Shown one piece after another: positions 1-14,490 of a stretch of DNA of 64,000 nt (positions within the stretch are counted from its first letter, which is position 1; each line of letters begins with the position of its first letter). The notes below the pieces were generated by a model. The model ran no database searches and had not been told where the DNA came from. It saw only the letters and a list, made by a program, of their open reading frames with translations. The DNA lies in contig JABDEY010000003.1 in assembly GCA_013286805.1 (NCBI GenBank), positions 49 through 64,048 of the forward strand. Reading direction: 5' to 3'. The DNA comes from Bacteroidota bacterium (lineage in GTDB: Bacteria; Bacteroidota; Bacteroidia; JABDFU01). The translations under genes and the position numbers were made by a program.

Positions 1-1395
1 AGGCCCTACACAGCCGTTTGCACCTGTTGGAGTGATTACGTAGGTGACAGCTACAGGTGCCAGAGTGGTATTAATGAGTGTTTCTGCTATGGGGTTAGCA
101 ACCTGGCCTGCTACTGTTGCATTGCTAACACCTGCTACAGCAACTCTGCCCCAGCTAAAGGTAGTAGTACCCAAGCCACTGGTGATGGTATAGCTCTCAG
201 CCACTCCAGAGCAGATCGTGTTGGCGGCAGCACTGGTTACTACCGGAGTTGGATTTACTGTTACTACATAGTTAAAGGCAGGCCCTACGCAGCCGTTTGC
301 ACCTGTTGGAGTGATCACATAAGTGACAGCTACAGGTGCCAGAGTGGTATTAATGAGTGTTTCTGCTATGGGGTTAGCAACCTGGCCTGCTACTGTTGCA
401 TTGCTAACACCTGCTACCGCAACTCGTCCCCAGCTAAAGGTGGTAGTGCCTAAGCCACTGGTGATGGTATAGCTCTCAGCCACTCCTGAGCAGATCGTGT
501 TGGCGGCTGCACTGGTTACAACAGGAGTTGGATTTACTGTCACTACATAGTTAAAGGCAGGCCCTACGCAGCCGTTTGCACCTGTTGGAGTGATCACATA
601 AGTGACAGCTACAGGTGCCAGAGTGGTGTTGATCAGTGTTTCTGCGATTGGGTTAGCTACCTGGCCTGCTACTGTTGCATTGCTCACTCCTGCTACCGCA
701 ACTCTTCCCCAGCTAAAGGTGGTGGTGCCTAAGCCGCTGGTGATGGTATAACTCTCAGCTACTCCCGAGCAGATCGTGTTGGCGGCTGCGCTGGTTACTA
801 CCGGAGTTGGATTTACTGTTACTACATAGTTAAAGGCAGGCCCTACACAGCCGTTTGCACCCGTTGGAGTGATCACATAAGTGACAGCTACAGGTGCGAG
901 TGTGGTATTGATCAGTGTTTCTGCTATTGGGTTAGCTACCTGGCCTGCTACTGTTGCATTGCTCACTCCTGCTACAGCAACTCTTCCCCAGCTAAAGGTA
1001 GTAGTACCTAAGCCGCTGGTGATGGTATAACTCTCAGCTACTCCAGAGCAGATCGTGTTGGCGGCAGCACTGGTTACTACCGGAGTTGGATTTACTGTTA
1101 CTACATAGTTAAAGGCAGGCCCTACGCAGCCGTTTGCACCTGTTGGAGTGATCACATAAGTGACAGCTACAGGTGCCAGAGTGGTATTAATGAGTGTTTC
1201 TGCTATGGGATTAGCAACCTGGCCTGCTACTGTTGCATTGCTCACACCTGCCACAGCAACTCTTCCCCAGCTAAAGGTGGTGGTGCCTAAGCCACTGGTG
1301 ATGGTATAATTTTCAGCCACCCCTGAGCATATCGTTGTTGCTGCTGCACTGGTCACGACCGGAGTTGGATTTACTGTTACTACATAGCTAAATAC
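1..1395 (-). repeat. Five near-identical in-frame 279-bp tandem repeats, each encoding one 93-aa PKD-like domain
   Basis: Units start at 1, 280, 559, 838 and 1117 (aggccctacRcagccgtttgcacc...). The period is exactly 279 bp. I counted about 16 mismatches between units 1 and 2 (~94% identity). The array is cut by the window start. Confidence 0.9.
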
Positions 1396-4300
1396 AGGTC
1401 CTGCGCAAAGGCTCGGTCCCGGACCAGTAGGGCTGATCAGGTAAGTGACGGCAACAGGTGCCAAAGTAGTGTTGATCAGGGTTTCTGCTATTGGGTTAGC
1501 TACCTGACCCGGTGGAGCAACAGCATTGCTGATACCCACTACGGCAGCTCTTCCCCATGTAAAGGTGGTACCTGCTGTTGCGCTGGTAATGGTATAACTC
1601 TCTGCTACTCCCGAGCAGATAGTCGTAGCCGCAGCGCTGCTGACAGTTGGTGCTGGATTTACCGTTACTACGTAAGTAAACACAGGGCCTGGGCAATTGG
1701 TGGGAGCCGGGCCTATAGGGGTAATCAGGTAAGTGACAGCCACGGGACTAGCGGTTGTGTTGACAAGTGTTTCATTGATAGGATTAGTTCCCAGTGGTCC
1801 TGCTGCAGCATTACTGATTCCTGCCACGACAGCCCTGGTCCAGCTAAAAGTCGTACCTGCCAAAGCACTTGTGATCGTATAGTTTTCAGCTACACCGCTA
1901 CATACAGAACCTGTTGCGGCACTATTCACAGTTGGTAAAGGATTCACCGTTACCGTTACAGTAACCGGAGCTGCAATACAACCGTTATCAAAAGCATTGA
2001 CTGTATAAGTTGTTGTAATAGCAGGAGTAGCAATGGGGTTAGCTTTAGAAGGATCATCCAGACTGCCGGCAGGAGCCCAGGCATAAGTCGCACCTACCGG
2101 CCCGATAGGGTGGGCACCAAGGGTAACGCTACTACCAATACACATAGTTTGATTTGGACCCGCATCAATTTTAAAGGGAGCTGGGCGTCGTGTAGGAATA
2201 AAACAAGCATTGAGAAACACACGTTCTCCGTTAATACCTGCCTGGGTACCAACCGTACTGTAATCATGCCCTCCCATATAGAACACATTGCCTCCGGCAG
2301 AGTCAGCCTGATTCAGGTGCGCTGAGTAAACCTTAATATTGACATTACTTGGTTCCTGAACGCAAAAATACCCTCCATTATTCCATGTTCCGGAAAGAGA
2401 CTGAAAGTCTGCCAATGCTCCTGCATCATCATCCATAACACCCTGGAATTGCATAATTGCCATATCCGGATTGCTGTATGCCACCGAAGCCAAGCCATTA
2501 TTTTCGCCAATTCCGGTAGGAGTCATGAAATGGTGATTGGCTTCGTAGGTCTCTACGCCTTTACATTCTGTGAAAAAATTTCCGCCAGAATTCACGAAAT
2601 TCTTAACAAATGTTGTAAAGTTTATTTTGTTAGGCGTTGGAGTGATGCTACCACAAGAACCACCAAGACCGCAGAGTGTGTCCCAGTGAGCCTCTGTGCA
2701 CATCGTATAGCATTGAGAAAGCCCAGGAAATCCACCTGCTGACTGAACATCATATGCCGGATAAAGTCCTCCGCTTCCAATCTGAGTCATCCCGGCGTCC
2801 GTAAAATAGGAAATAGGAACATTGTCAAATCCCCCGTCGTTAAGAACAGATACTTTAATGGCTTGATTTAATGTGTAACGCACATCAACTGTAATGTTCC
2901 CCCCTGTCAATTGAAATACATTAACTTGATTTGTTCCGGGAGTAAGTGTAGCCTCGTATGCTGCGATTACCTGGGCTGCTGTAAGCCCTGTAGAATAAAA
3001 GGGTGTATTGATGTATTGAGGATCAACAATAAATGCGCTGGCACTAAAATTTCTAACAGTGGCTGCCCCAGCAGGTAATGGGAAATATTTAATGGTATTA
3101 GCTGAAAAGTCAACAGCATCTTTTGCCTTTCCTGATAAAATCACCCAATGTACCGGTATATTATTTTGAACAAAGGCATTGATCAAGCCATACGCTTTTA
3201 AATTGAACTTGCCGCCACTGTTCAGCTGATTGGTATTATCCATGGCAACAATCAATGCACCTGTTGTGATTAACGTAGGATTTGAAGCAGGATTGGGAAG
3301 GTCTGGTCTGCTACAGGTAGCATTTGTAATGATGCGTGTACCCGGAGGATTTGGTGTACTTATAATAGATTCAGTAGTCCCTCCCATGACAAATGAAGAA
3401 AGGGAAGCATCTAACTGATCTCCGACGTTTGCTGAACCCGGAACTGCATAATGAAGATAGAAGTAGTAGGTTCCGGGTTTTGTTAATGCAGCGGTTCCGT
3501 TTATTGTAAATGCGCCATTGGGGCTTGCAAAAGACCCGAACAGTGTTTTAACAGCAAACTGCGGCCTTGCGCCAACATTGTATTCCGGAATGGTATCTGT
3601 AAAATAAAGGTTAGCAGCTGTAATGTTCGTCAAAGGGTTTTGAGAAAAACCTGCATCACCAACGGTACTGAAATTGAACTGGGTGATATCAACACAGCTG
3701 CTTCCGGAAACTGTTACTGCAATTTGCAGAATATCATCATCCGCATCGGCACAATTAAGATTGATCGGGCCGGTTGAATACTGGGTGACGGCGCTTGATA
3801 CATAGGTGAGGGGATTCAATGCTGTTATTGAAACATCACTTATACTGGTACATGCACCATTGGTTATCGTCCAACGTAAAGTAGCAACAGCGCCAGAAAC
3901 TAAACCTGTAACGGTAGAAGTTGGGGAAGATGGAGTAGTAATGGTCGCTACTCCTGATACAAGTGACCAGGCTCCAATACCCACTCCTGGTGCATTGGCA
4001 GCCAGAGTAGTTGAGGTAGTGCCGCAAAGGGTCTGATCGGGACCGGCATTGGAGGTTGTTGGGGGTACACCAGCCATAGGTTTTATTGTACATGTTGAAA
4101 CAGAATTAGCACATGGTGCATTTACAATCGTCCATTGAAAAGTTGTGGTAGTTCCAACAGTGAGGCCGGTAACATCTGAACTTTCAGAGCTTGGGGTTAC
4201 GATGGTTACTCCACCACAATTGGCTGTACAAGTCCAGGTTCCAACGCCGACCAAAGGAAGATTACCAGCCAACGTGGCAGTAGTAGTACAAGGTGTTTGA

Positions 4301-6381
4301 TTAGGGCCTGCAACTGCAACTGTCGGTGGTAGTGCTTCTGTGATAGACATGGCCGAAGAAAGGGAGCAAGTTCCTCTTGTAGTTGTCCAAAGTAAGTCGG
4401 CAGTAGTCCCTGGCACAAGGCCCGTCACTCCGGAAGTAGGTGATGTTGGAGTTGTAATTGTTGCGGTTCCGGAAGTAACTGACCACAAACCTGTGGTTGG
4501 TAATACAACAGGGTTAGGGGTAGCTGCAAGTGTAGCTGTTGTGAGGTTACAATGAGTCTGGTTTGGTCCGGCCGCTGCCGCCGTAGGATTGGCAACTCCT
4601 GTTACAACCACATTACTGGATGATGCAGCGCATGGGGCATTTGAAATGGTCCATTTAAATGTAGTTGCAGTTCCAACCGCAATTCCGGTAATGCCAGAAT
4701 TAGCAGTGGTATTGGCAGTAATTCCAACTCCCCCGCAATTGGTAATACAGGTCCATAATCCAGCTCCGGTCACCGGAATGTTGCCGGCAAGGGCTGAAGC
4801 TCCACCTCCACAAACGTTAAAAGCAGGGCCTGCTACAGATACTGTAGGTGGAGCAGTTGAAGTAAAGTTCATAGATGAAGAAAGTGAACATGTACCACGT
4901 GTCGTGGTCCAGGTGAAGACGACAGTGGTACCGACTTCTATTCCGGTCACGCCGGAATTATTTGCTGAGGGGGTAGTAAGTGTTGCGGTTCCGGAAGTAA
5001 CAGACCAGAGACCCGTAGTTGGCAATACAACGGCGGTTGCATTAAGAGTACCGCTTGTAACATCACAATTATTTTGATCTGCCCCTGCAACTGGAGCAGT
5101 TGGAAGAGGAGCGCCGGTTACAACTACGGTACTGGATGAACTGCATGAGCCGTTTGTAATGGTCCACTGAAATGTTGTTGCAGTTCCAACCGCAATTCCG
5201 GTTATTGCGGAAGTAGGAGATGCTGGGGTTGTAATACCGACTCCTCCACAATTGGCAGTACAGGTCCATAACCCGGCACCAACAATAGGTGTATTGCCAG
5301 CAAGGGTTGATGCGCCACCACCGCAAACGTTAAAAGCAGGACCAGCAACAGAAGCTGTTGGCGGAGCATCTACAGTTATGGTCATAGGTGAGGAAAGGGT
5401 ACATGCACCACGTGTTGTTGTCCAAAGCAAATTGGCAGAAGCCCCTACAACAAGGCCTGTCACTCCGGAAACAGGTGATGTGGGAGTTGTAATTGTTGCA
5501 GTCCCGGAAGTAACTGACCATGCACCAGTAGTTGGCAAAACAACCGGGTTAGGAGTAGCGTTAAGTGAAGTGGTTGTAACGTTACAAAGATCCTGATTTA
5601 CTCCTGCATTAGGAACTGTTGGATTAGCGACACCTGTTACCTGCACCGTACTGGATGATGGAGCACATGAACCATTTGAAATGGTCCATTGAAATGTGGT
5701 AGTGGTTCCAACCGGAATTCCTGAAAAACCATTTGTTGGAGATGTTCCGGGTGCAGTGATAGTCACGCCTGCACAATTGGTTGTACACGTCCATACTCCT
5801 GCTCCAACAATTGGTGTATTGCCTGCGAGGTTGCCACTGCCGCCACAGGCATTAAAGGCAGAACCAGCGTTAGATGCAGTTGGGGGAGCAATAGTAGTAT
5901 AATTCACAGTTCCATCGCCAAAAGTATTTGTTCCACCACTGGTATTTGGAATGGTCATCACAAGTGCAGCGGAAGTACCGGCAGGCATATTTGTAATGTT
6001 ATTAAGAACTACCGTAAATGTCTTATTTTTAGCAACAGCAATCGGGGCCAGAAAAGTTATCACGGTGGCTGACACATTTGTTATCACACCAATGTTGGTA
6101 CCATTGTATTGGCTACCATTTCCTGTAACACAGGTATTTGCATTCGTTCCTGCAGGAAAGGTAATTGTAACCAAAGCTCCAAGAGCCATCGGCGCATTGT
6201 TACTATTAGGTGTCGTTCCTGATAAGGTATATGTTGCAAGTACACCCTGGCAGTTATTGGATAAGGAAATGCTGTTCCAGGGCACCGTAAAACTGGCAGC
6301 ACAAACCCTCTGCACCCCGCCACATAAGCAGCAGACAACAATAAATCCAGCTAGAAAGTATTTGGGTACCTTTAATAGCAT
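1..6381 (-). CDS. Giant exported multi-repeat surface/adhesin-like protein. The N-terminal 2127 codons are in the window; the C-terminus lies beyond the window start.
   Basis: ATG at 6381..6379 opens MLLKVPKYFLAGFIVVCCLCGG (signal-peptide-like). 6381 is divisible by 3, so this frame runs exactly off position 1. I found no in-frame stop in the stretches I translated by hand (1-120, 2041-2340, 2640-2730, 3120-3270, 6300-6381). None of the tracked minus ORFs in 1-6400 shares this frame. It is probably absent from the track because it has no stop in the window. The translation gives 8 Ig-like repeats, a globular middle region, and at least 7 PKD-like repeats (ICSGVAE.YTITS..TTFSW...VTYVITP..C.GP.F.YVVTVNP). 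Confidence 0.85.
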   Translation of the reverse strand, partial: MLLKVPKYFLAGFIVVCCLCGGVQRVCAASFTVPWNSISLSNNCQGVLATYTLSGTTPNSNNAPMALGALVTITFPAGTNANTCVTGNGSQYNGTNIGVITNVSATVITFLAPIAVAKNKTFTVVLNNITNMPAGTSAALVMTIPNTSGGTNTFGDGTVNYTTIAPPTASNAGSAFNACGGSGNLAGNTPIVGAGVWTCTTNCAGVTITAPGTSPTNGFSGIPVGTTTTFQWTISNGSCAPSSSTVQVTGVANPTVPNAGVNQDLCNVTTTSLNATPNPVVLPTTGAWSVTSGTATITTPTSPVSGVTGLVVGASANLLWTTTRGACTLSSPMTITVDAPPTASVAGPAFNVCGGGASTLAGNTPIVGAGLWTCTANCGGVGITTPASPTSAITGIAVGTATTFQWTITNGSCSSSSTVVVTGAPLPTAPVAGADQNNCDVTSGTLNATAVVLPTTGLWSVTSGTATLTTPSANNSGVTGIEVGTTVVFTWTTTRGTCSLSSSMNFTSTAPPTVSVAGPAFNVCGGGASALAGNIPVTGAGLWTCITNCGGVGITANTTANSGITGIAVGTATTFKWTISNAPCAASSSNVVVTGVANPTAAAAGPNQTHCNLTTATLAATPNPVVLPTTGLWSVTSGTATITTPTSPTSGVTGLVPGTTADLLWTTTRGTCSLSSAMSITEALPPTVAVAGPNQTPCTTTATLAGNLPLVGVGTWTCTANCGGVTIVTPSSESSDVTGLTVGTTTTFQWTIVNAPCANSVSTCTIKPMAGVPPTTSNAGPDQTLCGTTSTTLAANAPGVGIGAWSLVSGVATITTPSSPTSTVTGLVSGAVATLRWTITNGACTSISDVSITALNPLTYVSSAVTQYSTGPINLNCADADDDILQIAVTVSGSSCVDITQFNFSTVGDAGFSQNPLTNITAANLYFTDTIPEYNVGARPQFAVKTLFGSFASPNGAFTINGTAALTKPGTYYFYLHYAVPGSANVGDQLDASLSSFVMGGTTESIISTPNPPGTRIITNATCSRPDLPNPASNPTLITTGALIVAMDNTNQLNSGGKFNLKAYGLINAFVQNNIPVHWVILSGKAKDAVDFSANTIKYFPLPAGAATVRNFSASAFIVDPQYINTPFYSTGLTAAQVIAAYEATLTPGTNQVNVFQLTGGNITVDVRYTLNQAIKVSVLNDGGFDNVPISYFTDAGMTQIGSGGLYPAYDVQSAGGFPGLSQCYTMCTEAHWDTLCGLGGSCGSITPTPNKINFTTFVKNFVNSGGNFFTECKGVETYEANHHFMTPTGIGENNGLASVAYSNPDMAIMQFQGVMDDDAGALADFQSLSGTWNNGGYFCVQEPSNVNIKVYSAHLNQADSAGGNVFYMGGHDYSTVGTQAGINGERVFLNACFIPTRRPAPFKIDAGPNQTMCIGSSVTLGAHPIGPVGATYAWAPAGSLDDPSKANPIATPAITTTYTVNAFDNGCIAAPVTVTVTVNPLPTVNSAATGSVCSGVAENYTITSALAGTTFSWTRAVVAGISNAAAGPLGTNPINETLVNTTASPVAVTYLITPIGPAPTNCPGPVFTYVVTVNPAPTVSSAAATTICSGVAESYTITSATAGTTFTWGRAAVVGISNAVAPPGQVANPIAETLINTTLAPVAVTYLISPTGPGPSLCAGPVFSYVVTVNPTPVVTSAAATTICSGVAENYTITSGLGTTTFSWGRVAVAGVSNATVAGQVANPIAETLINTTLAPVAVTYVITPTGANGCVGPAFNYVVTVNPTPVVTSAAANTICSGVAESYTITSGLGTTTFSWGRVAVAGVSNATVAGQVANPIAETLINTTLAPVAVTYVITPTGANGCVGPAFNYVVTVNPTPVVTSAAANTICSGVAESYTITSGLGTTTFSWGRVAVAGVSNATVAGQVANPIAETLINTTLAPVAVTYVITPTGANGCVGPAFNYVVTVNPTPVVTSAAANTICSGVAESYTITSGLGTTTFSWGRVAVAGVSNATVAGQVANPIAETLINTTLAPVAVTYVITPTGANGCVGPAFNYVVTVNPTPVVTSAAANTICSGVAESYTITSGLGTTTFSWGRVAVAGVSNATVAGQVANPIAETLINTTLAPVAVTYVITPTGANGCVGP
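1396..1974 (-). repeat. Two diverged units of the same PKD-like repeat
   Basis: One unit starts at 1396 (aggtcctgcgcaaagg, 288 bp). The next starts at 1684 (agggcctgggcaattgg, ~290 bp). Both keep the domain pattern (ICSGVAE.YTITS..FTW/FSW...VTYLI.P...C.GPVF.YVVTVNP) but have indels and many substitutions. Confidence 0.75.
3820..5900 (-). repeat. Eight ~87-aa Ig-like coding repeats in two alternating subtypes (ABABABAB; super-repeat ~510-525 bp)
   Basis: Type A carries AGPAFNVCGGGAS.LAGN.P..GAG.WTC..NCGGV.I. Type B carries AG..Q..C....TLNATP.PVVLPTTG.WSVTSGTATITTP. The plus-strand shadow ORFs 4340..4555, 4589..5077, 5252..5596 and 5696..5902 repeat the same antisense peptides (PVTPE.GDVGVVIVAVPEVTDH; QVHNPAP..G.LPAR...PPPQTLKAGPA). 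Confidence 0.8.
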
Positions 6382-6607
6382 TTTAATCTGTTATGACTGA
6401 AACCATACTTATGGGGTATAATACTAATTAACAGATAGATAGCTATTATACGTAGTTAGGCTTCAATATGTTTCAAATATAAGGAAATAAACGCATATTT
6501 TCTTACATTGGTAAGTAAAGGAGTAGTTATGACCTGAATATTGACCCTTTTTCAGATACCTGAGAGCAGGAAGAAAAAAGCGGAAACGAGGAGTTCTCAA
6601 AAAAAAG

Positions 6608-6692
6608 CGGAGGAAGAGGGATTCGAACCCCCGGTAGTGTTACCTACAACAGTTTTCAAGACTGCCGCGTTAAACCGCTCTGCCATTCCTCC
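6608..6692 (-). tRNA. tRNA-Ser (anticodon UGA)
   Basis: The reverse complement reads GGAGGAATGGCAGAGCGGTTTAACGCGGCAGTCTTGAAAACTGTTGTAGGTAACACTACCGGGGGTTCGAATCCCTCTTCCTCCG. It has a 7-bp acceptor stem (GGAGGAA/TTCCTCC), anticodon loop CTTGAAA, a long variable arm and a GTTCGAATC T-loop. It is 85 nt with no encoded CCA. Confidence 0.9.
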
Positions 6693-6750: not shown

Positions 6751-8292
6751 ATGCAAAATTTCGGAGGTTCATATTCAAAAAAATACAAAGTCGTCCGCCT
6801 TTACTTATTTGTACTTCTGTCTTTGATTTTTTTTTCCCAATTTATTCTCGCAGGGAGTTTGTCTGCATTTTTGGGGTATTCTGCTTTTTTTTCTACTCAG
6901 AAGGGCCCTTATATTGAAACGTATCTGACGGTGATGGGGCAAACTGTTGTTTACAAAAAAAAACCAAATGGAAAGTATCAGGGTACAATAAGTATAACTA
7001 TGTTATTCAGGCAAAATGATACAATTAAGGCAGTTCGCAAATACAACCTTCATAGTCTGGAAATTGAAGATACACTGAGGGGAAGGGTTAATTTTATTGA
7101 TGAGCAGCGTTTTTTTATGAAGGAAGGGATTTATGATTTCGAGCTGCAGATTGCTGACAAAAATAGTTTGTTGCAGCCTTATAAGTATTCCCAAAAAATT
7201 GAAATCAGGTATGATGAGCAAAAAATGGCACTCTCTGATATTGAATTTCTTGAATCTTATTCCAGGTCCGTCACTCCAACTATTTTAACCAAGAATGGCT
7301 ATGATCTTATACCCTATGTTTCTGAAATTTATCCAAAGAACCTTAGCCGGCTTTCGTTTTATTGTGAGGTATATAATGCAGCTAAAATTTTAGGTGATAG
7401 TGAAAAATTTGTAACGTTCTACACGATTAAGTCAGTTGATTCAATGAAAATTATTTCAACTACTATTTCGGATAATGTTCCAAAAAAGGCAATTGCTGAT
7501 TACAGAAGTTTTTCAAAACAAAAAGCAGCACCCATAAACGGGATCTTAGCATCATTTGATATAACTAATTTATATTCAGGTAATTATAATATATTTATTG
7601 AAGTGAAAGATAAAGAAAATAATTTGCTGGTTAGTAAAAGCCGGAATTTTAAACGTGAAAATCCCATTCCCTTAATCAGTTCTCCTTATATGGGTAATTC
7701 GGTTAAGGATGGTATGATTCCTGCTTCATTTGCTTTCCGTCTTAGAAACAGGGATTCCTTAAATGAATTTGTAAATAGTTTAAGGCCCATTGCACAGGCT
7801 TCAGAGAAAAAAATTATTGACGAAAATCTTAAAGATACAGGAATTGAGTTGTTGCAGCAGTTCTTTTTCAACTTCTGGAAAGCGCGCAATGCTTCTAATC
7901 CTGAAGGGGAATGGAATACATATTATGCGGATGTGAGAAAGGTAAATAAGTTGTTCGGTTCATTAAATATCAAAGGTTATAATGCGGACAGAGGGCGGGT
8001 ATATTTGCAATACGGGGAGCCTTACAGCCGTATTCCCGGGGATAATAGTGTTGGCGTGTACCCATATGAAATCTGGAAATACAATAAGATAGGAAATCAA
8101 ACCAATGTGCGGTTTATTTTTTACGATCCGGATTATTCCAACAATTATTTCGTTTTGCTTCATTCTGATGTGCGCGGGGAACCGAATAATGAGCAATGGC
8201 AGGCTGTTCTGCAGAAACAGAACCAATTAAACGGGAGTCCGAACAATTCGTATGGAAACAGGGTACAGGAAGATTTCTTGAACTCTAAGTAG
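6751..8292 (+). CDS. GWxTD domain-containing exported protein
   Basis: 513-aa ORF with a hydrophobic N-terminal signal or anchor (LYLFVLLSLIFFSQFILAGS). The C-terminal region NPEGEWNTYYADVRKVNKLFG...KGYNADRGRVYLQYGEPYSR matches my recollection of the GWxTD domain family. Confidence 0.7.
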   Translation: MQNFGGSYSKKYKVVRLYLFVLLSLIFFSQFILAGSLSAFLGYSAFFSTQKGPYIETYLTVMGQTVVYKKKPNGKYQGTISITMLFRQNDTIKAVRKYNLHSLEIEDTLRGRVNFIDEQRFFMKEGIYDFELQIADKNSLLQPYKYSQKIEIRYDEQKMALSDIEFLESYSRSVTPTILTKNGYDLIPYVSEIYPKNLSRLSFYCEVYNAAKILGDSEKFVTFYTIKSVDSMKIISTTISDNVPKKAIADYRSFSKQKAAPINGILASFDITNLYSGNYNIFIEVKDKENNLLVSKSRNFKRENPIPLISSPYMGNSVKDGMIPASFAFRLRNRDSLNEFVNSLRPIAQASEKKIIDENLKDTGIELLQQFFFNFWKARNASNPEGEWNTYYADVRKVNKLFGSLNIKGYNADRGRVYLQYGEPYSRIPGDNSVGVYPYEIWKYNKIGNQTNVRFIFYDPDYSNNYFVLLHSDVRGEPNNEQWQAVLQKQNQLNGSPNNSYGNRVQEDFLNSK

Positions 8293-8364
8293 ACTTGCAT
8301 GCCAAGGGGCACGTTTAGCCTACTTTGTGCCCGAATGGGCCTAAATAAACTTAGCTTTGCAACA

Positions 8365-9399
8365 ATGAGCAAGGTAGCAGTCGTAATCTTAAATTGGAAC
8401 GGGAGGGCATTGCTGGAGCAATTTCTGCCTGCTGTGATTCAATTTAGCTCATCTGCTGAAATTATAGTTGCAGACAATAATTCGACGGACGATTCAGTAG
8501 AATTTGTTGAAACAAATTTTTCTACTGTAAGAATAGTGAAGAATTCTTCCAATGGGGGATATGCCAAAGGATATAATGATGCATTGAAGCAGGTGGAGGC
8601 GGAGTATTGTATTTTGCTGAATTCGGATGTGGAAGTTACTTCCGGATGGCTGGAACCTGTAATACGCATGATGGATGCAGACCTGTCTATAGTTGCTGCT
8701 CAACCTAAATTATTAGCATATAACCAAAAAGAACAGTTTGAATATGCAGGTGCTGCAGGTGGGTTTATTGATAAGTACGGTTATCCTTTTTGCAGGGGAC
8801 GGATTTTTGATTCATACGAAAACGATTTTGGCCAATATGATGATTCCAGAGAGATTCATTGGGCCACAGGTGCTTGCTTATTTGTAAGAACTGCTGTTTT
8901 TAAAGCGGAAGGAGGTCTGGATGAGGACTTTTTTGCGCATATGGAGGAGATTGATTTATGCTGGCGCTTGAAGAACAGAGGTTTCAGGATTATGTATTGT
9001 GCTGAATCAGTGGTTTACCATGTTGGTGCAGGGACACTGGCTAAACACAGTCCTCATAAAACTTATTTGAATTTCAGGAATAACCTGATACTACTGTGCA
9101 AAAATCATTCCCGGCAATATTTCAGACTAAAGTTAGTATTGCGCATGCTGATGGATGGGATTGCCGGACTTAAATTTTTAGTTTCGGGAGATGCAGCTCA
9201 TTGTATTGCTGTTATGAAGGCTCACATCAGTTTTTATTCCACCTTTCCAAAAACTCTGGCAAAGAGAAAGGAACTGAAAAAGGGGGTTGTGAAGTATTCT
9301 ACCAGCGCTATTTATAATCGCAGTATTGTGGCAGATTATTACTTGAGGGGTAAGAAAAAATTTAGCGATTTGCGTTCTGATAAATTTCTTAATATCTGA
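8365..9399 (+). CDS. Glycosyltransferase family 2
   Basis: MSKVAVVILNWNG..LLEQFLP, VADNNSTDDS and the DEDFF..EEIDLCWR motifs are typical GT2 (GT-A fold, DxD). I prefer the ATG at 8365 to the track start at 8299, which only adds 22 non-conserved-looking residues. Confidence 0.85.
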   Translation: MSKVAVVILNWNGRALLEQFLPAVIQFSSSAEIIVADNNSTDDSVEFVETNFSTVRIVKNSSNGGYAKGYNDALKQVEAEYCILLNSDVEVTSGWLEPVIRMMDADLSIVAAQPKLLAYNQKEQFEYAGAAGGFIDKYGYPFCRGRIFDSYENDFGQYDDSREIHWATGACLFVRTAVFKAEGGLDEDFFAHMEEIDLCWRLKNRGFRIMYCAESVVYHVGAGTLAKHSPHKTYLNFRNNLILLCKNHSRQYFRLKLVLRMLMDGIAGLKFLVSGDAAHCIAVMKAHISFYSTFPKTLAKRKELKKGVVKYSTSAIYNRSIVADYYLRGKKKFSDLRSDKFLNI

Positions 9400-10954: not shown

Positions 10955-11914
10955 TCAATTTTTCCTCGAAATAACTTTTAAGGCCGCTTCTACAATGTTT
11001 ATGGTATCAAGGCCGTATTTGGTCATCAGCTGATCGGGGGTACCACTTTCTCCAAAGCTGTCTTTTATTGCTACCATTTCGAGCGGGGCTGGAAAATGAC
11101 CGGAAATAATTTGGGCTATGCTGTCTCCAAGTCCACCATTTTGCTGGTGTTCCTCAGCAGTGACTGCGCATTTTGTTTTACGCACACTCTGAAGGATGGC
11201 TTTTTCATCTATGGGTTTTATGGTATGGATGTTTATGATTTCGGCGCTGATCCCTTTTGCCTGCAATTCTTCACATGCTTCTATTGCTTTCCAAACTAAA
11301 TGCCCGGTGGCAAAAATACTTACGTCGCTGCCTTCATTTAATACAATGGCTTTCCCAATTTCAAAGAGTTTGCCTGCTGGTGTAAAATTTGGAACTGCTG
11401 GTCGGCCAAAGCGAAGGTAAACGGGGCCAATGTAATCAGCGATGGCAAGCGTTGCGGCCTGCGTCTGGTTGTAATCACAGGGATTTATTACGACCATTCC
11501 GGGTAACATTTTCATCAGGCCTATGTCTTCTAATATCTGGTGGGTAGCTCCGTCTTCTCCAAGTGTAAGTCCGGCATGGGATGCGCAGATTTTTACATTT
11601 TTTCCAGAGTAGGCTACTGACTGGCGAATCTGGTCGTAAACACGGCCGGTTGAAAAATTAGCGAACGTTCCGGTAAATGGTATTTTGCCTCCGATGGTTA
11701 ATCCTGCTGCTATGCCTATCATATTTGCTTCGGCTATTCCAACCTGGATAAAACGCTCCGGAAAATCTTTCAGGAATGCGTCCATTTTTAAGGACCCGGT
11801 TAAATCAGCGCAGAGTGCTACTACATTTGGGTTTTGTTTTCCAAGCGCATGTAGGCCGGCCCCAAAGCCGGAGCGGGTGTCTTTCTTTTCCGTGTAAGTG
11901 TATTTGTGGGTCAT
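10955..11914 (-). CDS. Transketolase, C-terminal (pyrimidine-binding and C-terminal domain) subunit
   Basis: 319 aa. FPERFIQVGIAEANMIGIAAGL and CASHAGLTLGEDGATHQ are motifs of the C-terminal half of split transketolases. Confidence 0.9.
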   Translation of the reverse strand: MTHKYTYTEKKDTRSGFGAGLHALGKQNPNVVALCADLTGSLKMDAFLKDFPERFIQVGIAEANMIGIAAGLTIGGKIPFTGTFANFSTGRVYDQIRQSVAYSGKNVKICASHAGLTLGEDGATHQILEDIGLMKMLPGMVVINPCDYNQTQAATLAIADYIGPVYLRFGRPAVPNFTPAGKLFEIGKAIVLNEGSDVSIFATGHLVWKAIEACEELQAKGISAEIINIHTIKPIDEKAILQSVRKTKCAVTAEEHQQNGGLGDSIAQIISGHFPAPLEMVAIKDSFGESGTPDQLMTKYGLDTINIVEAALKVISRKN

Positions 11915-11991
11915 TTATTTAAAATTCGTTAAAAGTAAATTGTTCCTAATAAGAATCGTAACAAGTATTTGTATGAATCTGCTGTCGTTTA

Positions 11992-13536
11992 TTAATACAT
12001 TTTTATTGATACTGTAGAACCGGACTCGACTTTGAATTTTCGTTCTACGGTATAAATCGATTCTTTTGCTGACTTGGAACGCCATTCTGCCCTGTAATTA
12101 CCAGGCTGCAAAACGATGTTTTCCTGAATCTGATTTTCCTGTAAGTTGCATACCCAGGTTAATTTGTTTTTCTCTTCTACGAAAAGGCTTCCTGGTCCTT
12201 CATTTGTCCTGGTAATAACTACCATTCCAGCCTGAGGTATTTCGAGGGTTGTGGTTTTACTTTGGGCGATGTCAATATTGGAAAGTGTAATACGCGGCAG
12301 GGTGAGGATTTCGAGGTCGTATTTCCCTACTATGTATTTCTCAACTTGTGTGAAGTCCTGAACATTGAGTGTTTGCATTTCTCCTCGTTTGCGAACGATG
12401 CATTTTAAAGTTTTATAGTTGTTAAAGGCTACTTTTAAACTTAATAAACCCTGTGGAGCATCCAGAGCAATAATATTGTGCTTGCCTGCAATAAGGGTAA
12501 TATCATGTTTTTCAACAGGAGGAATGGTGTGCACTACCAGATGATAGGTTTGAACCGGGTCAAGGGTAAGTGTATCGGGTAAGCCTTTATTGTTGAGGGT
12601 GTGCATGTAATCATATCTGATAAGTCCGGAGGTCTCATCGTAAAATGTCATGTTGACATCTGTTTCAGTGGGCTTGCCTATCTGATCGAGTAAATTTACC
12701 TGGGCTGAGGTGTTGTTTAATGCCTGGGAAATAACGATGTTGAGAATATTCTTGAAGGTTTCTTCATTCGAGGCGTCGTAAAATTTTCCTATGCAGCCAA
12801 AAGAGTTTTTGAGGTTTTCATCCAGCCCGACTCCTATGATAAAAGGTTTGAGGATAATGCCTTTCCTTTGTAGTGAAAGTGATACGGCACAAGGGTCTCC
12901 GTCGCATTCTTCAATGCCGTCTGTTATCAGAATAATTATATTACGCACAGCAGGGCTTCCGGGTACAGGAAAGTCATCCCCGCATTGTTCAAGGGAATAG
13001 GCTATTGGTGTGGTTCCTCTTGGTACTATATCAACTAATTTTCGTTTGATGGCTGCTACGTTGGCGCGAATATCCGGATCAAAAGGAACTTCTAGTTTGG
13101 TGTCTTTGCAATCACGCTGTGGACGCAGGTTGTGTTGATGTCCATAGGCACGGAATGCTACTTCGAGGTGGTCAAAACTACGCAGGCTGTCAAGAAATTC
13201 TCCCAGCAGCCTTTTTGCAATGTCTATCTTCATTCCGCTTTGCCATTGGCCGAACATGCTGTAGGAAGCATCGAAGACAAAGAGTATGCGAGTGGTGGGT
13301 TTCACAGTTGGTTGTTGTGAACGTTGTGATTTAGGCTGGGCGATTGAGGTAAAGGGTGTGATAAGAGCTAAGAGAAAAAAAACAAAAGGCAAAAGAGCAG
13401 TAGACGAGCGAAAATACTTAATGGCTATTACAAAGCGAATTAAGGCAATTAGCCGGTGCCCAATTGAGCCAGTTTGTGTGAAAGTGGGCGCTCTAAAAGA
13501 TAAACGAGTTAATAAATTCGATTGAAATGGATACAT
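11992..13536 (-). CDS. von Willebrand factor type A (VWA) domain protein with a C-terminal beta-rich region
   Basis: 514-aa ORF with MIDAS-type ILFVFDASYSM and ITDGIEECDGDPC. A hydrophobic signal-like segment (LLPFVFFLLALITPFTSIAQ) lies ~45 aa after the first ATG, so the true start is uncertain. Confidence 0.75.
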   Translation of the reverse strand: MYPFQSNLLTRLSFRAPTFTQTGSIGHRLIALIRFVIAIKYFRSSTALLPFVFFLLALITPFTSIAQPKSQRSQQPTVKPTTRILFVFDASYSMFGQWQSGMKIDIAKRLLGEFLDSLRSFDHLEVAFRAYGHQHNLRPQRDCKDTKLEVPFDPDIRANVAAIKRKLVDIVPRGTTPIAYSLEQCGDDFPVPGSPAVRNIIILITDGIEECDGDPCAVSLSLQRKGIILKPFIIGVGLDENLKNSFGCIGKFYDASNEETFKNILNIVISQALNNTSAQVNLLDQIGKPTETDVNMTFYDETSGLIRYDYMHTLNNKGLPDTLTLDPVQTYHLVVHTIPPVEKHDITLIAGKHNIIALDAPQGLLSLKVAFNNYKTLKCIVRKRGEMQTLNVQDFTQVEKYIVGKYDLEILTLPRITLSNIDIAQSKTTTLEIPQAGMVVITRTNEGPGSLFVEEKNKLTWVCNLQENQIQENIVLQPGNYRAEWRSKSAKESIYTVERKFKVESGSTVSIKMY

Positions 13537-13539
13537 AAA

Positions 13540-14490
13540 TTAATAATCTCCAAGTGTTTCCGGCAACTGAGACAAGGCCTTGGCAAGCTGATCGTCATTT
13601 GGGGCAACTCCATGCCATTTGTGAGAACCGGTCATGAAGTCCACACCAAAACCCATTTCAGTTTTCATGAGGATTACTACTGGTTTGCCTTTTCCCGAAT
13701 GTTGCTGGGCAAGGTTTAATACATCAGAGACCTCCGGTAAATTATTCCCATTCATTTCGAGGACGTCCCATCCAAAGGCCAGCCATTTTGCTTTCAGGTC
13801 TCCAAGTGGCAGAACCTGATTTACATCTCCATCAATCTGACGTCCATTCCAGTCTACTGTGGAAATAAGGTTGTCTACCTTGTTTGCTGAGGCGAACATA
13901 ATAGCTTCCCAATTTTGTCCTTCCTGCAATTCCCCGTCTCCATGGAGGGAATACACCAATCGGGAATCCTTATTCATTTTCTTTGCCAATGCTGCTCCTA
14001 TCGCAACGGATAGTCCTTGTCCCAGGGAGCCAGAGGCAACGCGAACTCCCGGGATTCCTTCATGGGTTGCAGGATGACCCTGGAGACGTGAGTTTAGTTT
14101 ACGGAAGGTGGATAGCTCTTTTACCGGAAAATAACCGGAACGCGCAAGCACGCTGTACCAGACGGGTGAAATATGACCGTTGGAAAGAAAGAATAAATCT
14201 TCCCCGATTCCATCCATGTTAAATTTTGCAGGATTGTGTTTCATTAATGAGAAATACAGGGTTACAAAAAATTCAGTACAGCCCAATGAAGCCCCGGGAT
14301 GGCCTGAATTTACAGCATGAACCATTCTGACTATGTCCCGCCTGACCTGGGAGGTTATTTTTTTTAATTCTTCGGGAGATGACATAGTAAGAGCCTGTGA
14401 AGGCATATTAGAAACCTGTGAGGACATAGTCTTAATTAAGAAATCAAAAGTATCGTTTTTAATTTCTCCAGTTTTTAATGTTAATAACAT
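13540..14490 (-). CDS. Transketolase, N-terminal (TPP-binding) subunit
   Basis: Motifs NSGHPGASLG, LSNGH and HGDGELQEGQNWEA (the GDG..EG TPP motif). The true start may be an internal Met such as 14427, because the first ~35 residues look non-conserved. Confidence 0.9.
   Translation of the reverse strand: MLLTLKTGEIKNDTFDFLIKTMSSQVSNMPSQALTMSSPEELKKITSQVRRDIVRMVHAVNSGHPGASLGCTEFFVTLYFSLMKHNPAKFNMDGIGEDLFFLSNGHISPVWYSVLARSGYFPVKELSTFRKLNSRLQGHPATHEGIPGVRVASGSLGQGLSVAIGAALAKKMNKDSRLVYSLHGDGELQEGQNWEAIMFASANKVDNLISTVDWNGRQIDGDVNQVLPLGDLKAKWLAFGWDVLEMNGNNLPEVSDVLNLAQQHSGKGKPVVILMKTEMGFGVDFMTGSHKWHGVAPNDDQLAKALSQLPETLGDY

Follow-up and report, generated by a model that had tools for sequence, protein, structure and literature searches.

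Giant surface proteins exported through a type IX secretion system (T9SS) abound in environmental Bacteroidota, and to our knowledge nearly all of them are known only as 'repeat-containing adhesin'. A described case is SprB of Flavobacterium johnsoniae, a type B T9SS cargo that goes together with SprF; cargo of this type is anchored at the surface through PorP-like proteins (PMC9143113). Here we describe a giant gene on the minus strand at the beginning of a 64,000-nucleotide stretch of DNA from an uncultured member of the Bacteroidota (bases 49-64048 of contig C3; hereafter the window). Its product has in common with SprB the giant size, a Sec signal peptide and a long array of immunoglobulin (Ig)-like modules. 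As in the SprB/SprF pair, relatives of the giant protein end in a CHU_C sorting domain with a PorP/SprF gene directly downstream, and the genome contains gliding and T9SS genes. In contrast to SprB, the giant protein has no Pfam match to the SprB repeat (PF13573), its stalk consists of PKD_5 units and an unassigned Ig type, it carries in addition a CBM93-like module and a domain with the class I glutamine amidotransferase (GATase1) fold, hereafter the core, and its own C-terminus lies beyond the assembly. SprB repeats are present in other members of the core family.

The CBM93-like module also has a described counterpart. BNR_assoc_N (PF14873) is the Pfam family that we take to be CAZy CBM93. 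It is the N-terminal module of Bacteroidota GH33 sialidases such as NanH of T. forsythia. CBM93 of NanH, which stands just ahead of the catalytic domain, was shown to bind glycans (PMC9472817). In the giant protein, too, the module stands immediately N-terminal to the presumed functional domain and matches at fold level with a probability of 1.0, but it lies under the Pfam threshold in the giant protein's own sequence, and glycan binding is demonstrated for NanH only. Moreover, the domain after the CBM93-like module has the GATase1 fold in the giant protein, whereas it is a GH33 beta-propeller in the sialidases. Our working interpretation, in which belief and doubt are evenly balanced, is that the giant protein is a T9SS type B surface filament whose working part is the CBM93-like module together with a GATase1-fold head bearing an enzyme-like Cys/His pocket.

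An intact giant frame cut by the end of the assembly

With residues counted from the ATG at 6381, the minus frame runs without a stop to base 1 of the window (2127 codons, both in a listing of open reading frames (ORFs) that allows open ends and in the translation) and stays open across the 48 further bases to the end of the contig, reaching 2143 codons. Because these 6429 bases contain neither a stop nor a frameshift in this frame, we reject the reading as a pseudogene or as several genes. The contig end falls within a tandem array with a period of 279 bp and 5.8 copies (TRF), and the C-terminus of the giant protein is missing because the assembly breaks inside this array; the truncation is one of assembly, not of biology. 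The giant ORF is thus one intact gene, cut by the assembly end, that encodes a giant, probably cell-surface protein of an uncultured Bacteroidota. An original prediction, made from the letters of the window, had proposed an open minus frame of more than 2127 codons from ATG 6381 amid about 20 shadow ORFs; the translation of 1..6381 bears out the frame, and the 27 stop-to-stop stretches of at least 60 amino acids (aa) in the other five frames fit the shadows. Extension of the contig beyond position 1, which had been put forward as a check, gained 16 open codons and ended in the array short of the C-terminus.

The modules that the prediction had read from the frame, namely a signal peptide, a beta-rich N-terminal domain of about 150 aa, eight Ig-like repeats, a module like the N-terminal domain of BNR neuraminidases at about 3320-3800, an unassigned core, one PKD/Ig module and at least seven PKD-like repeats, were all recovered. 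The start ATG and the Sec-type signal peptide (MLLKVPKYFLAGFIVVCCLCGGVQRVCA/A; aa 1-27/28; 6301..6381, minus) were assigned by inspection from a basic n-region, a hydrophobic core and an A-x-A-like cleavage site. The core, which the prediction had left without a family, indeed has no sequence match in Pfam, NCBIfam or the PDB, and can now be named at the level of the fold.

Support for export by the T9SS comes from the relatives. Every complete long core homolog ends in a type B T9SS sorting domain with the motif FTPNGDG...GWDG, so that the T9SS sorting domain expected at the C-terminus is found in these homologs, while in this copy the C-terminus is outside the assembly. A complete relative of 4060 codons (P0265; locus L035 on G001:C10, 4435-16617) is encoded in the same-genus genome G001 and has the N-terminal domain, the CBM-like module, the core and the PKD module in the order of the giant protein. 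The two proteins are 45% identical over the 683 aa from the CBM-like pre-domain to the PKD module and 39% identical over about 800 aa of Ig-like repeats. P0265 ends in CHU_C (PF13585; E = 3.8e-15), and a PorP_SprF gene (P0266; E = 6.2e-37) follows directly. Its locus appears non-syntenic with that of the giant gene because the upstream neighbour differs, and P0265 is probably a paralog-grade relative, not an ortholog. Further downstream, P0265 has extra repeat classes with periods of about 331 and 251 aa, as judged from motif spacing, and a run of X (masked bases) interrupts its 88-aa array. In a further genome of the genus, G002, P0008 is probably the homolog (54% identity versus 52%, with an equal open-frame length).

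The genome itself encodes T9SS machinery, with GldM at 337 bits, seven PorP/SprF matches and at least 27 CHU_C proteins, and on contigs C12, C8, C52 and C22 CHU_C genes are directly followed by PorP/SprF genes. A search for SprA returned no match in this genome, and its controls were silent as well. This genome also holds a second copy of the core (C22:16207-22446), in a protein that has a signal peptide, the core, a PKD module and then repeats. The open frame of this copy has 2080 aa, of which about 1600 aa are repeats that by eye resemble SprB repeats; it stops ahead of a separate short CHU_C fragment (C22:15267-15503), and downstream the PorP/SprF gene is broken into two parts (12617-12895 and 12948-13526). 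C22:12617-22446 may be a decaying locus.

Fold, conserved residues and distribution of the core

The core (aa 1021-1402, 382 aa; 2176..3321, minus) was characterised by family conservation, AlphaFold2 modelling and Foldseek. Modelled alone, it reached a predicted local distance difference test (pLDDT) score of 89.6 and a predicted template modelling (pTM) score of 0.91, and the PDB matches that we interpreted are uniformly class I GATase-like (Foldseek probability 1.0, TMt 0.57-0.67). They include the glutamine amidotransferases PabA (8rp2, TMt 0.67), a GuaA-type subunit (2a9v) and TrpG (1i7q and 1qdl), as well as a gamma-glutamyl peptidase (9k7i), STM3548 (2gk3), ThuA-like proteins (1t0b and 4jqs), a GH42 mid-domain (5xb7), MetA (2ghr) and the GIFT domain of IFT52 (5fmr). 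The top match of the core-only model, the levan utilisome chain 8aa2_G, aligned poorly (root-mean-square deviation 15) and was left uninterpreted. On the strength of these models, we assign to the core a class I glutamine-amidotransferase-like alpha/beta fold, in a family that has no name.

A larger AlphaFold2 model, covering aa 881-1500 and built on 22 sequences (mean pLDDT 78.6), places the core in its context. Its top PDB match is OST48 (E = 2.5e-5), and in its first part it resembles, with a probability of 1.0, the N-terminal domains of Bacteroidota GH33 sialidases (6mrx, 7qxo, 4bbw, 4q6k and 4fj6). This first part corresponds to a beta-sandwich at aa 861-1020 (3322..3801, minus), the module for which a likeness to BNR neuraminidases had been predicted. 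PF14873 matches nine of the 22 aligned homologs (best E = 3.7e-7), and P0265 of the congener at E = 4.6e-4; against the giant protein's own sequence the same Pfam model gave no match at E <= 10. By these likenesses, the pre-domain would be a CBM93-like module of a glycan-binding type, with binding predicted. It is carried by only 18 of 157 core-family members.

Conservation was computed over 158 family members, which are otherwise about 35-45% identical. Residues conserved in at least 92% of them are D1048, Q1052, N1060, Y1064, W1079, K1085, D1091, D1166, R1168, C1224, T1226, H1232, N1268, C1273, Y1279, E1280, D1306, Q1311, H1372, N1384, R1387 and N1391. D1048 (codon 3238-3240; conservation 0.97), H1232 (2686-2688; 0.98), C1273 (2563-2565; 0.99) and H1372 (2266-2268; 0.97) are the key residues, and the coordinates of these codons and of that of C1224 (2710-2712), all on the minus strand, were verified. 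The GATase1 fold places the catalytic Cys at a strand-Cys-helix elbow and the catalytic His after the last strand. In the core-only model, C1273 is exactly between a strand (254-258, model numbering) and a helix (260-269), and H1372 comes after the last strand and before the C-terminal helix. The elbow motif reads A-Q-C-x-[A/G]; position -2 has Ala, Gly, Thr, Cys or Ser in 153 of 158 sequences and position +2 has Ala, Gly, Ser or Thr in all 158, which in terms of sequence is the Sm-x-Nuc-x-Sm signature of a putative nucleophile elbow. D1048 and H1232 likewise come after strand ends. As a general rule, the active site of an alpha/beta fold lies along the sheet's C-terminal edge, so that this placement suggests that D1048, H1232, C1273 and H1372 should form one pocket.

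Altogether, the core shares with the class I GATase-like superfamily (PF00117, gamma-glutamyl peptidases, ThuA PF06283, STM3548/DUF1355 and the GH42 mid-domain) the alpha/beta fold, the Cys at the strand-Cys-helix elbow and the His after the last strand. It differs in being about twice the size, owing to beta-hairpin insertions, in having no detectable sequence homology and no Glu at His+2, and in being extracellular, on T9SS cargo. The Cys-His-Glu triad (H-x-E) of class I GATases is therefore kept in its Cys and His but not in its Glu. A second comparison is with the GIFT domain of GldG, IFT52 and OST48/Wbp1, reportedly introduced by Beatson and Ponting in 2004. The fold of the core matches OST48 and the N-terminal part of IFT52, and all of them are GATase1-like; however, the core has no Pfam match to GIFT or ABC_transp_aux, and GIFT domains are without its conserved Cys/His set.

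Searches by sequence leave the family without a name. The core had no match in Pfam or NCBIfam, whether searched as the whole protein or in pieces, and none among PDB sequences by phmmer; a profile of 34 family members matched the PDB only at chance level (E about 1). When 22 family members were searched against Pfam, five gave weak BPL_N matches, and no model for ABC_transp_aux, IFT52_GIFT or ThuA matched at E <= 1. The core itself, searched exhaustively with phmmer against 1.84 billion cluster representatives, retrieved 563 clusters at E <= 1e-3, with 171 at E <= 1e-30; almost every match spans its full length. Public names of the proteins are only 'hypothetical', 'PKD domain-containing' and 'Calx-beta domain-containing'.

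The core begins at most 60 residues from the N-terminus in 110 of 157 core-bearing proteins, while the giant protein, with about 1000 residues ahead of it, is one of 12 in which the core starts beyond residue 500. A C-terminal T9SS sorting domain is recognisable in 80 of the 157: type B only in 44 (median 2131 aa) and type A in 36 (median 576 aa), three of which match type B too, so that 47 have any C-terminal type B match. Many of the remaining 77 are metagenomic fragments. The core is thus an autonomous unit, which in some cases makes a short secreted protein and in others heads a long filament. Its distribution is rare and patchy, with four of 299 sampled high-quality Bacteroidota genomes and four of the six genomes of this genus having it; a pattern scan with the giant protein as single query found four loci only. 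One stand-alone member, of 574 aa and with a type A sorting domain (L037:8001-9725), has a PAS histidine kinase gene on one side and the gene of a LuxR-type response regulator on the other, and it may be on a mobile element because relaxase, MobC and primase genes are a few kb away. The neighbours of the other short member examined encode beta-helix and cadherin-like proteins.

A probable catalytic or ligand-binding head

In our model, the Sec signal peptide would bring the giant protein into the periplasm, and the missing C-terminus, most likely a type B (CHU_C) sorting domain, would direct it across the outer membrane by way of the T9SS, where it would stay bound to a partner of the PorP/SprF type whose gene lies downstream. 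A long, stiff stalk would be made up of the Ig-like and PKD_5 repeats and carries a two-part functional module mid-stalk; in most relatives this module is found at the N-terminal tip instead. It comprises the CBM93-like beta-sandwich and, directly after it, the 382-aa GATase1-fold domain, with a putative pocket of D1048, H1232, C1273 and H1372 at the C-terminal ends of the central beta-strands. We suggest that the core may be a surface-displayed, Cys/His hydrolase-like or covalent-binding head. It would either act on a glycan or glycoconjugate that the adjoining CBM-like module recognises, or grip it. The giant protein is of an ordinary, known kind, the giant T9SS surface filament; its head family is unnamed and undescribed, and is probably either enzymatic or ligand-binding. 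The label 'adhesin' would be a reading of the architecture, by analogy with proteins built in this way.

Several points weigh against this model. With regard to export, the C-terminus of the giant protein is absent from the assembly, in which no contig overlaps the repeat, and no orphan fragment with a C-terminal sorting domain starts with a PKD_5 unit among the N-terminally cut CHU_C fragments checked (C124, C52 and C29); moreover, the signal peptide is a putative one, called by eye. With regard to the head, an hhalign comparison of the family alignment with 17 genuine GATase1 domains detected no sequence relationship (probability 0.3%), and the equivalence of the Cys and the His is for this reason a matter of secondary-structure topology only. 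The clustering of D1048, H1232, C1273 and H1372 is likewise suggested by their placement at strand ends and not by distances in the model. The Glu that GATases have at His+2 is replaced, with Tyr or Phe at this position in 148 of 158 sequences, and C1224 and C1273 could form a structural disulfide instead. Many extracellular GATase1-like modules are non-catalytic, such as the GH42 mid-domain and the GIFT domains of OST48 and IFT52. Finally, the neighbourhoods of the two short family members show no consistent functional hint and no shared context.

These points lead to an alternative that we regard as serious, although we lean to doubting it: architecture and secretion would be the same, but the GATase1-fold core would be non-catalytic, a ligand-binding or structural tip of a plain adhesin in which the Cys and His residues serve as a disulfide, a metal site or both. 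The fold matches take in just such relatives (OST48, the GIFT domain of IFT52, the GH42 mid-domain, ThuA-like proteins and STM3548), and sugar binding has been put forward for GIFT domains (PMC7226087). The core has no sequence relation to true GATases and lacks the triad Glu, two conserved Cys together with two conserved His suit a C2H2-type metal site or a disulfide equally well as a catalytic site, and the giant stalk is typical of adhesins such as SprB. However, about 22 polar residues conserved in at least 92% of a family that is otherwise 35-45% identical represent more constraint than a scaffold usually has, and the Sm-x-Cys-x-Sm elbow motif is kept. A disulfide between C1224 and C1273 is topologically unlikely in the model because the one precedes its strand and the other succeeds its own, and the short stand-alone versions with type A sorting domains resemble secreted T9SS enzymes.

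Returning to the model of an enzyme-like head, it is tempting to speculate that the core is the founding example of an undescribed group of T9SS-displayed Cys/His enzymes with the amidotransferase fold, namely an amidase, peptidase or acyl-transferase acting on glycoconjugates, or else a covalent 'grip', that is displayed as a short secreted protein or on filaments and is here targeted by the CBM93-like module; in this specific form the proposal is a tentative one, and we think it rather unlikely to hold in full.

Very improbable, finally, is that the frame is not one functional gene but a pseudogene remnant or an assembly chimera with an array stitched from co-existing strains: the contig does end in the array, the source is a metagenome-assembled genome of 2.32 Mb in 136 contigs with an estimated completeness of 56%, and synonymous polymorphism between strains could pass for differences between units, but chance cannot account for an uninterrupted frame of 6.4 kb, every module is intact and has a conserved counterpart, with the order kept, in another genome of the genus, contamination is estimated at 0.15%, the independent array of the congener has the same synonymous excess, and differences between units are exactly what would let a short-read assembler walk through five of them.

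The non-repeat part of such a filament is definable here as a compact, confidently folded and sharply conserved domain that has no Pfam or NCBIfam name and recurs in hundreds of protein clusters, stand-alone and secreted or heading filaments that run to thousands of residues. Should it prove to be an enzyme, the T9SS secretome would gain a new catalytic family and the amidotransferase fold a new extracellular use; should it be a binding head, it would be the part of the filament that contacts the target. Either way, aa 1015-1402 make a small expressible target.

Stalk repeats, N-terminal domain and neighbouring genes

A single PKD/Ig-like module (aa 1403-1476; 1954..2175, minus) follows the core, as it does in nearly all relatives: it gave a BLASTP match in 119 fetched homologs, is conserved in the family alignment, and is matched by the PKD domain 2yrl in the fold search with the aa 881-1500 model. 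The PKD_5 (PF19406) stalk comes next (aa 1477-2127; 1..1953, minus), with seven complete units of 93-95 aa (Pfam: seven stretches, 291 bits versus a cut-off of 25, E = 1.7e-88), and it continues past the ends of the window and the contig. The giant filament GhpA, the T9SS-dependent grappling hook of Aureispira, is comparable in that both are giant Bacteroidota surface filaments of Ig-like modules, and GhpA fragments (9flp, 9flv, 9flw and 9flx) match the Ig/PKD parts of the aa 881-1500 model. These are only generic Ig modules, however, and nothing in the giant protein points to hooks or predation, so the likeness is limited to the Ig modules.

Four of the PKD_5 units, starting at aa 1761, 1854, 1947 and 2040 and of 93 aa each (aa 1761-2132; 1..1101 and on to the contig end, minus), are identical in protein sequence when the units are compared. 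At the nucleotide level, they vary in 31 columns, all synonymous and 30 of them at codon position 3; each pair of units differs by 13-24 synonymous and 0 nonsynonymous codons. If substitutions were random, of which 27% would be synonymous, the chance of such a synonymous-only pattern would be about 2e-18. The unit before the four departs from them at two residues, and the two oldest units are about 40-57% different from the rest at the protein level; in the incomplete unit that follows, at the contig end, there is a single replacement (VTVNP to VTVKP). The 88-aa array of the congener has the same tendency in milder form, with 769 synonymous and 412 nonsynonymous codon differences. The synonymous-only differences suggest that the stalk units diverge in DNA without gene conversion while the protein is held fixed; the differences may also have arisen in assembly, by single-nucleotide polymorphisms between strains being threaded into successive units. 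Four protein-identical, synonymously diverged repeats make a clean natural case for asking why stalk repeats freeze in protein without homogenisation of their DNA.

A continuation of the gene was sought in the assembly by blastn with the first 900 bases, which returned only C3 itself and a 68% match in C68. The latter was rejected as the continuation; it belongs to a different protein with one PKD_5 unit and, by eye, a type A-like C-terminus. This N-terminally cut protein (C68:1-2871) has repeats of about 55 aa with the motif 'LYGMT..GG..G.GT.FQ' and several Ig-like modules; its single PKD_5 unit is 64-67% identical to the units of the giant gene, and its C-terminus resembles a type A T9SS sorting domain. 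From this composition, PKD_5 units appear to be common to cargo with different types of sorting domain in this genome.

On the N-terminal side of the CBM93-like module, eight Ig/PKD-like repeats of 85-88 aa each (aa 165-860; 3802..5889, minus) were checked by an identity matrix and self-matches, the number being the one predicted. They alternate between two subtypes as ABABAB, followed by units 7 and 8, which are more diverged. The A-type units (1, 3 and 5) are 66-74% and the B-type units (2, 4 and 6) 61-75% identical among themselves, versus 36-46% between A and B, and the region matches itself at an offset of about 174 aa. Pfam gave a weak K319L-like_PKD match (E = 0.021). The N-terminal beta-rich domain ahead of them (aa 28-164, 137 aa; 5890..6300, minus) is conserved in homologs, being 56% identical to aa 28-144 of P0024 and having a counterpart, by eye, at the N-terminus of P0265. 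Against Pfam it gave nothing above noise, and GAPDH, to which it had weak matches among PDB sequences (E >= 0.019), was rejected as a relative because these were judged compositional.

Upstream of the giant gene, TATATTTG at 6481-6474 (6474..6481, minus), 93 nt from the ATG, is a candidate -7 promoter box by its match to the Bacteroidota consensus TAnnTTTG. A tRNA-Ser(tga) gene (6607-6692, minus) lies directly upstream on the same strand. Divergent from the giant gene, 6751-9399 contains a gene for a GWxTD-domain protein (513 aa) and, 6 nt further on and on the same strand, one for a family-2 glycosyltransferase. At 10955-14490, a gene for a 514-aa VWA-domain protein (11992-13536) stands between the halves of a split transketolase (13540-14490 and 10955-11914, minus). 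The remaining neighbours are housekeeping genes.

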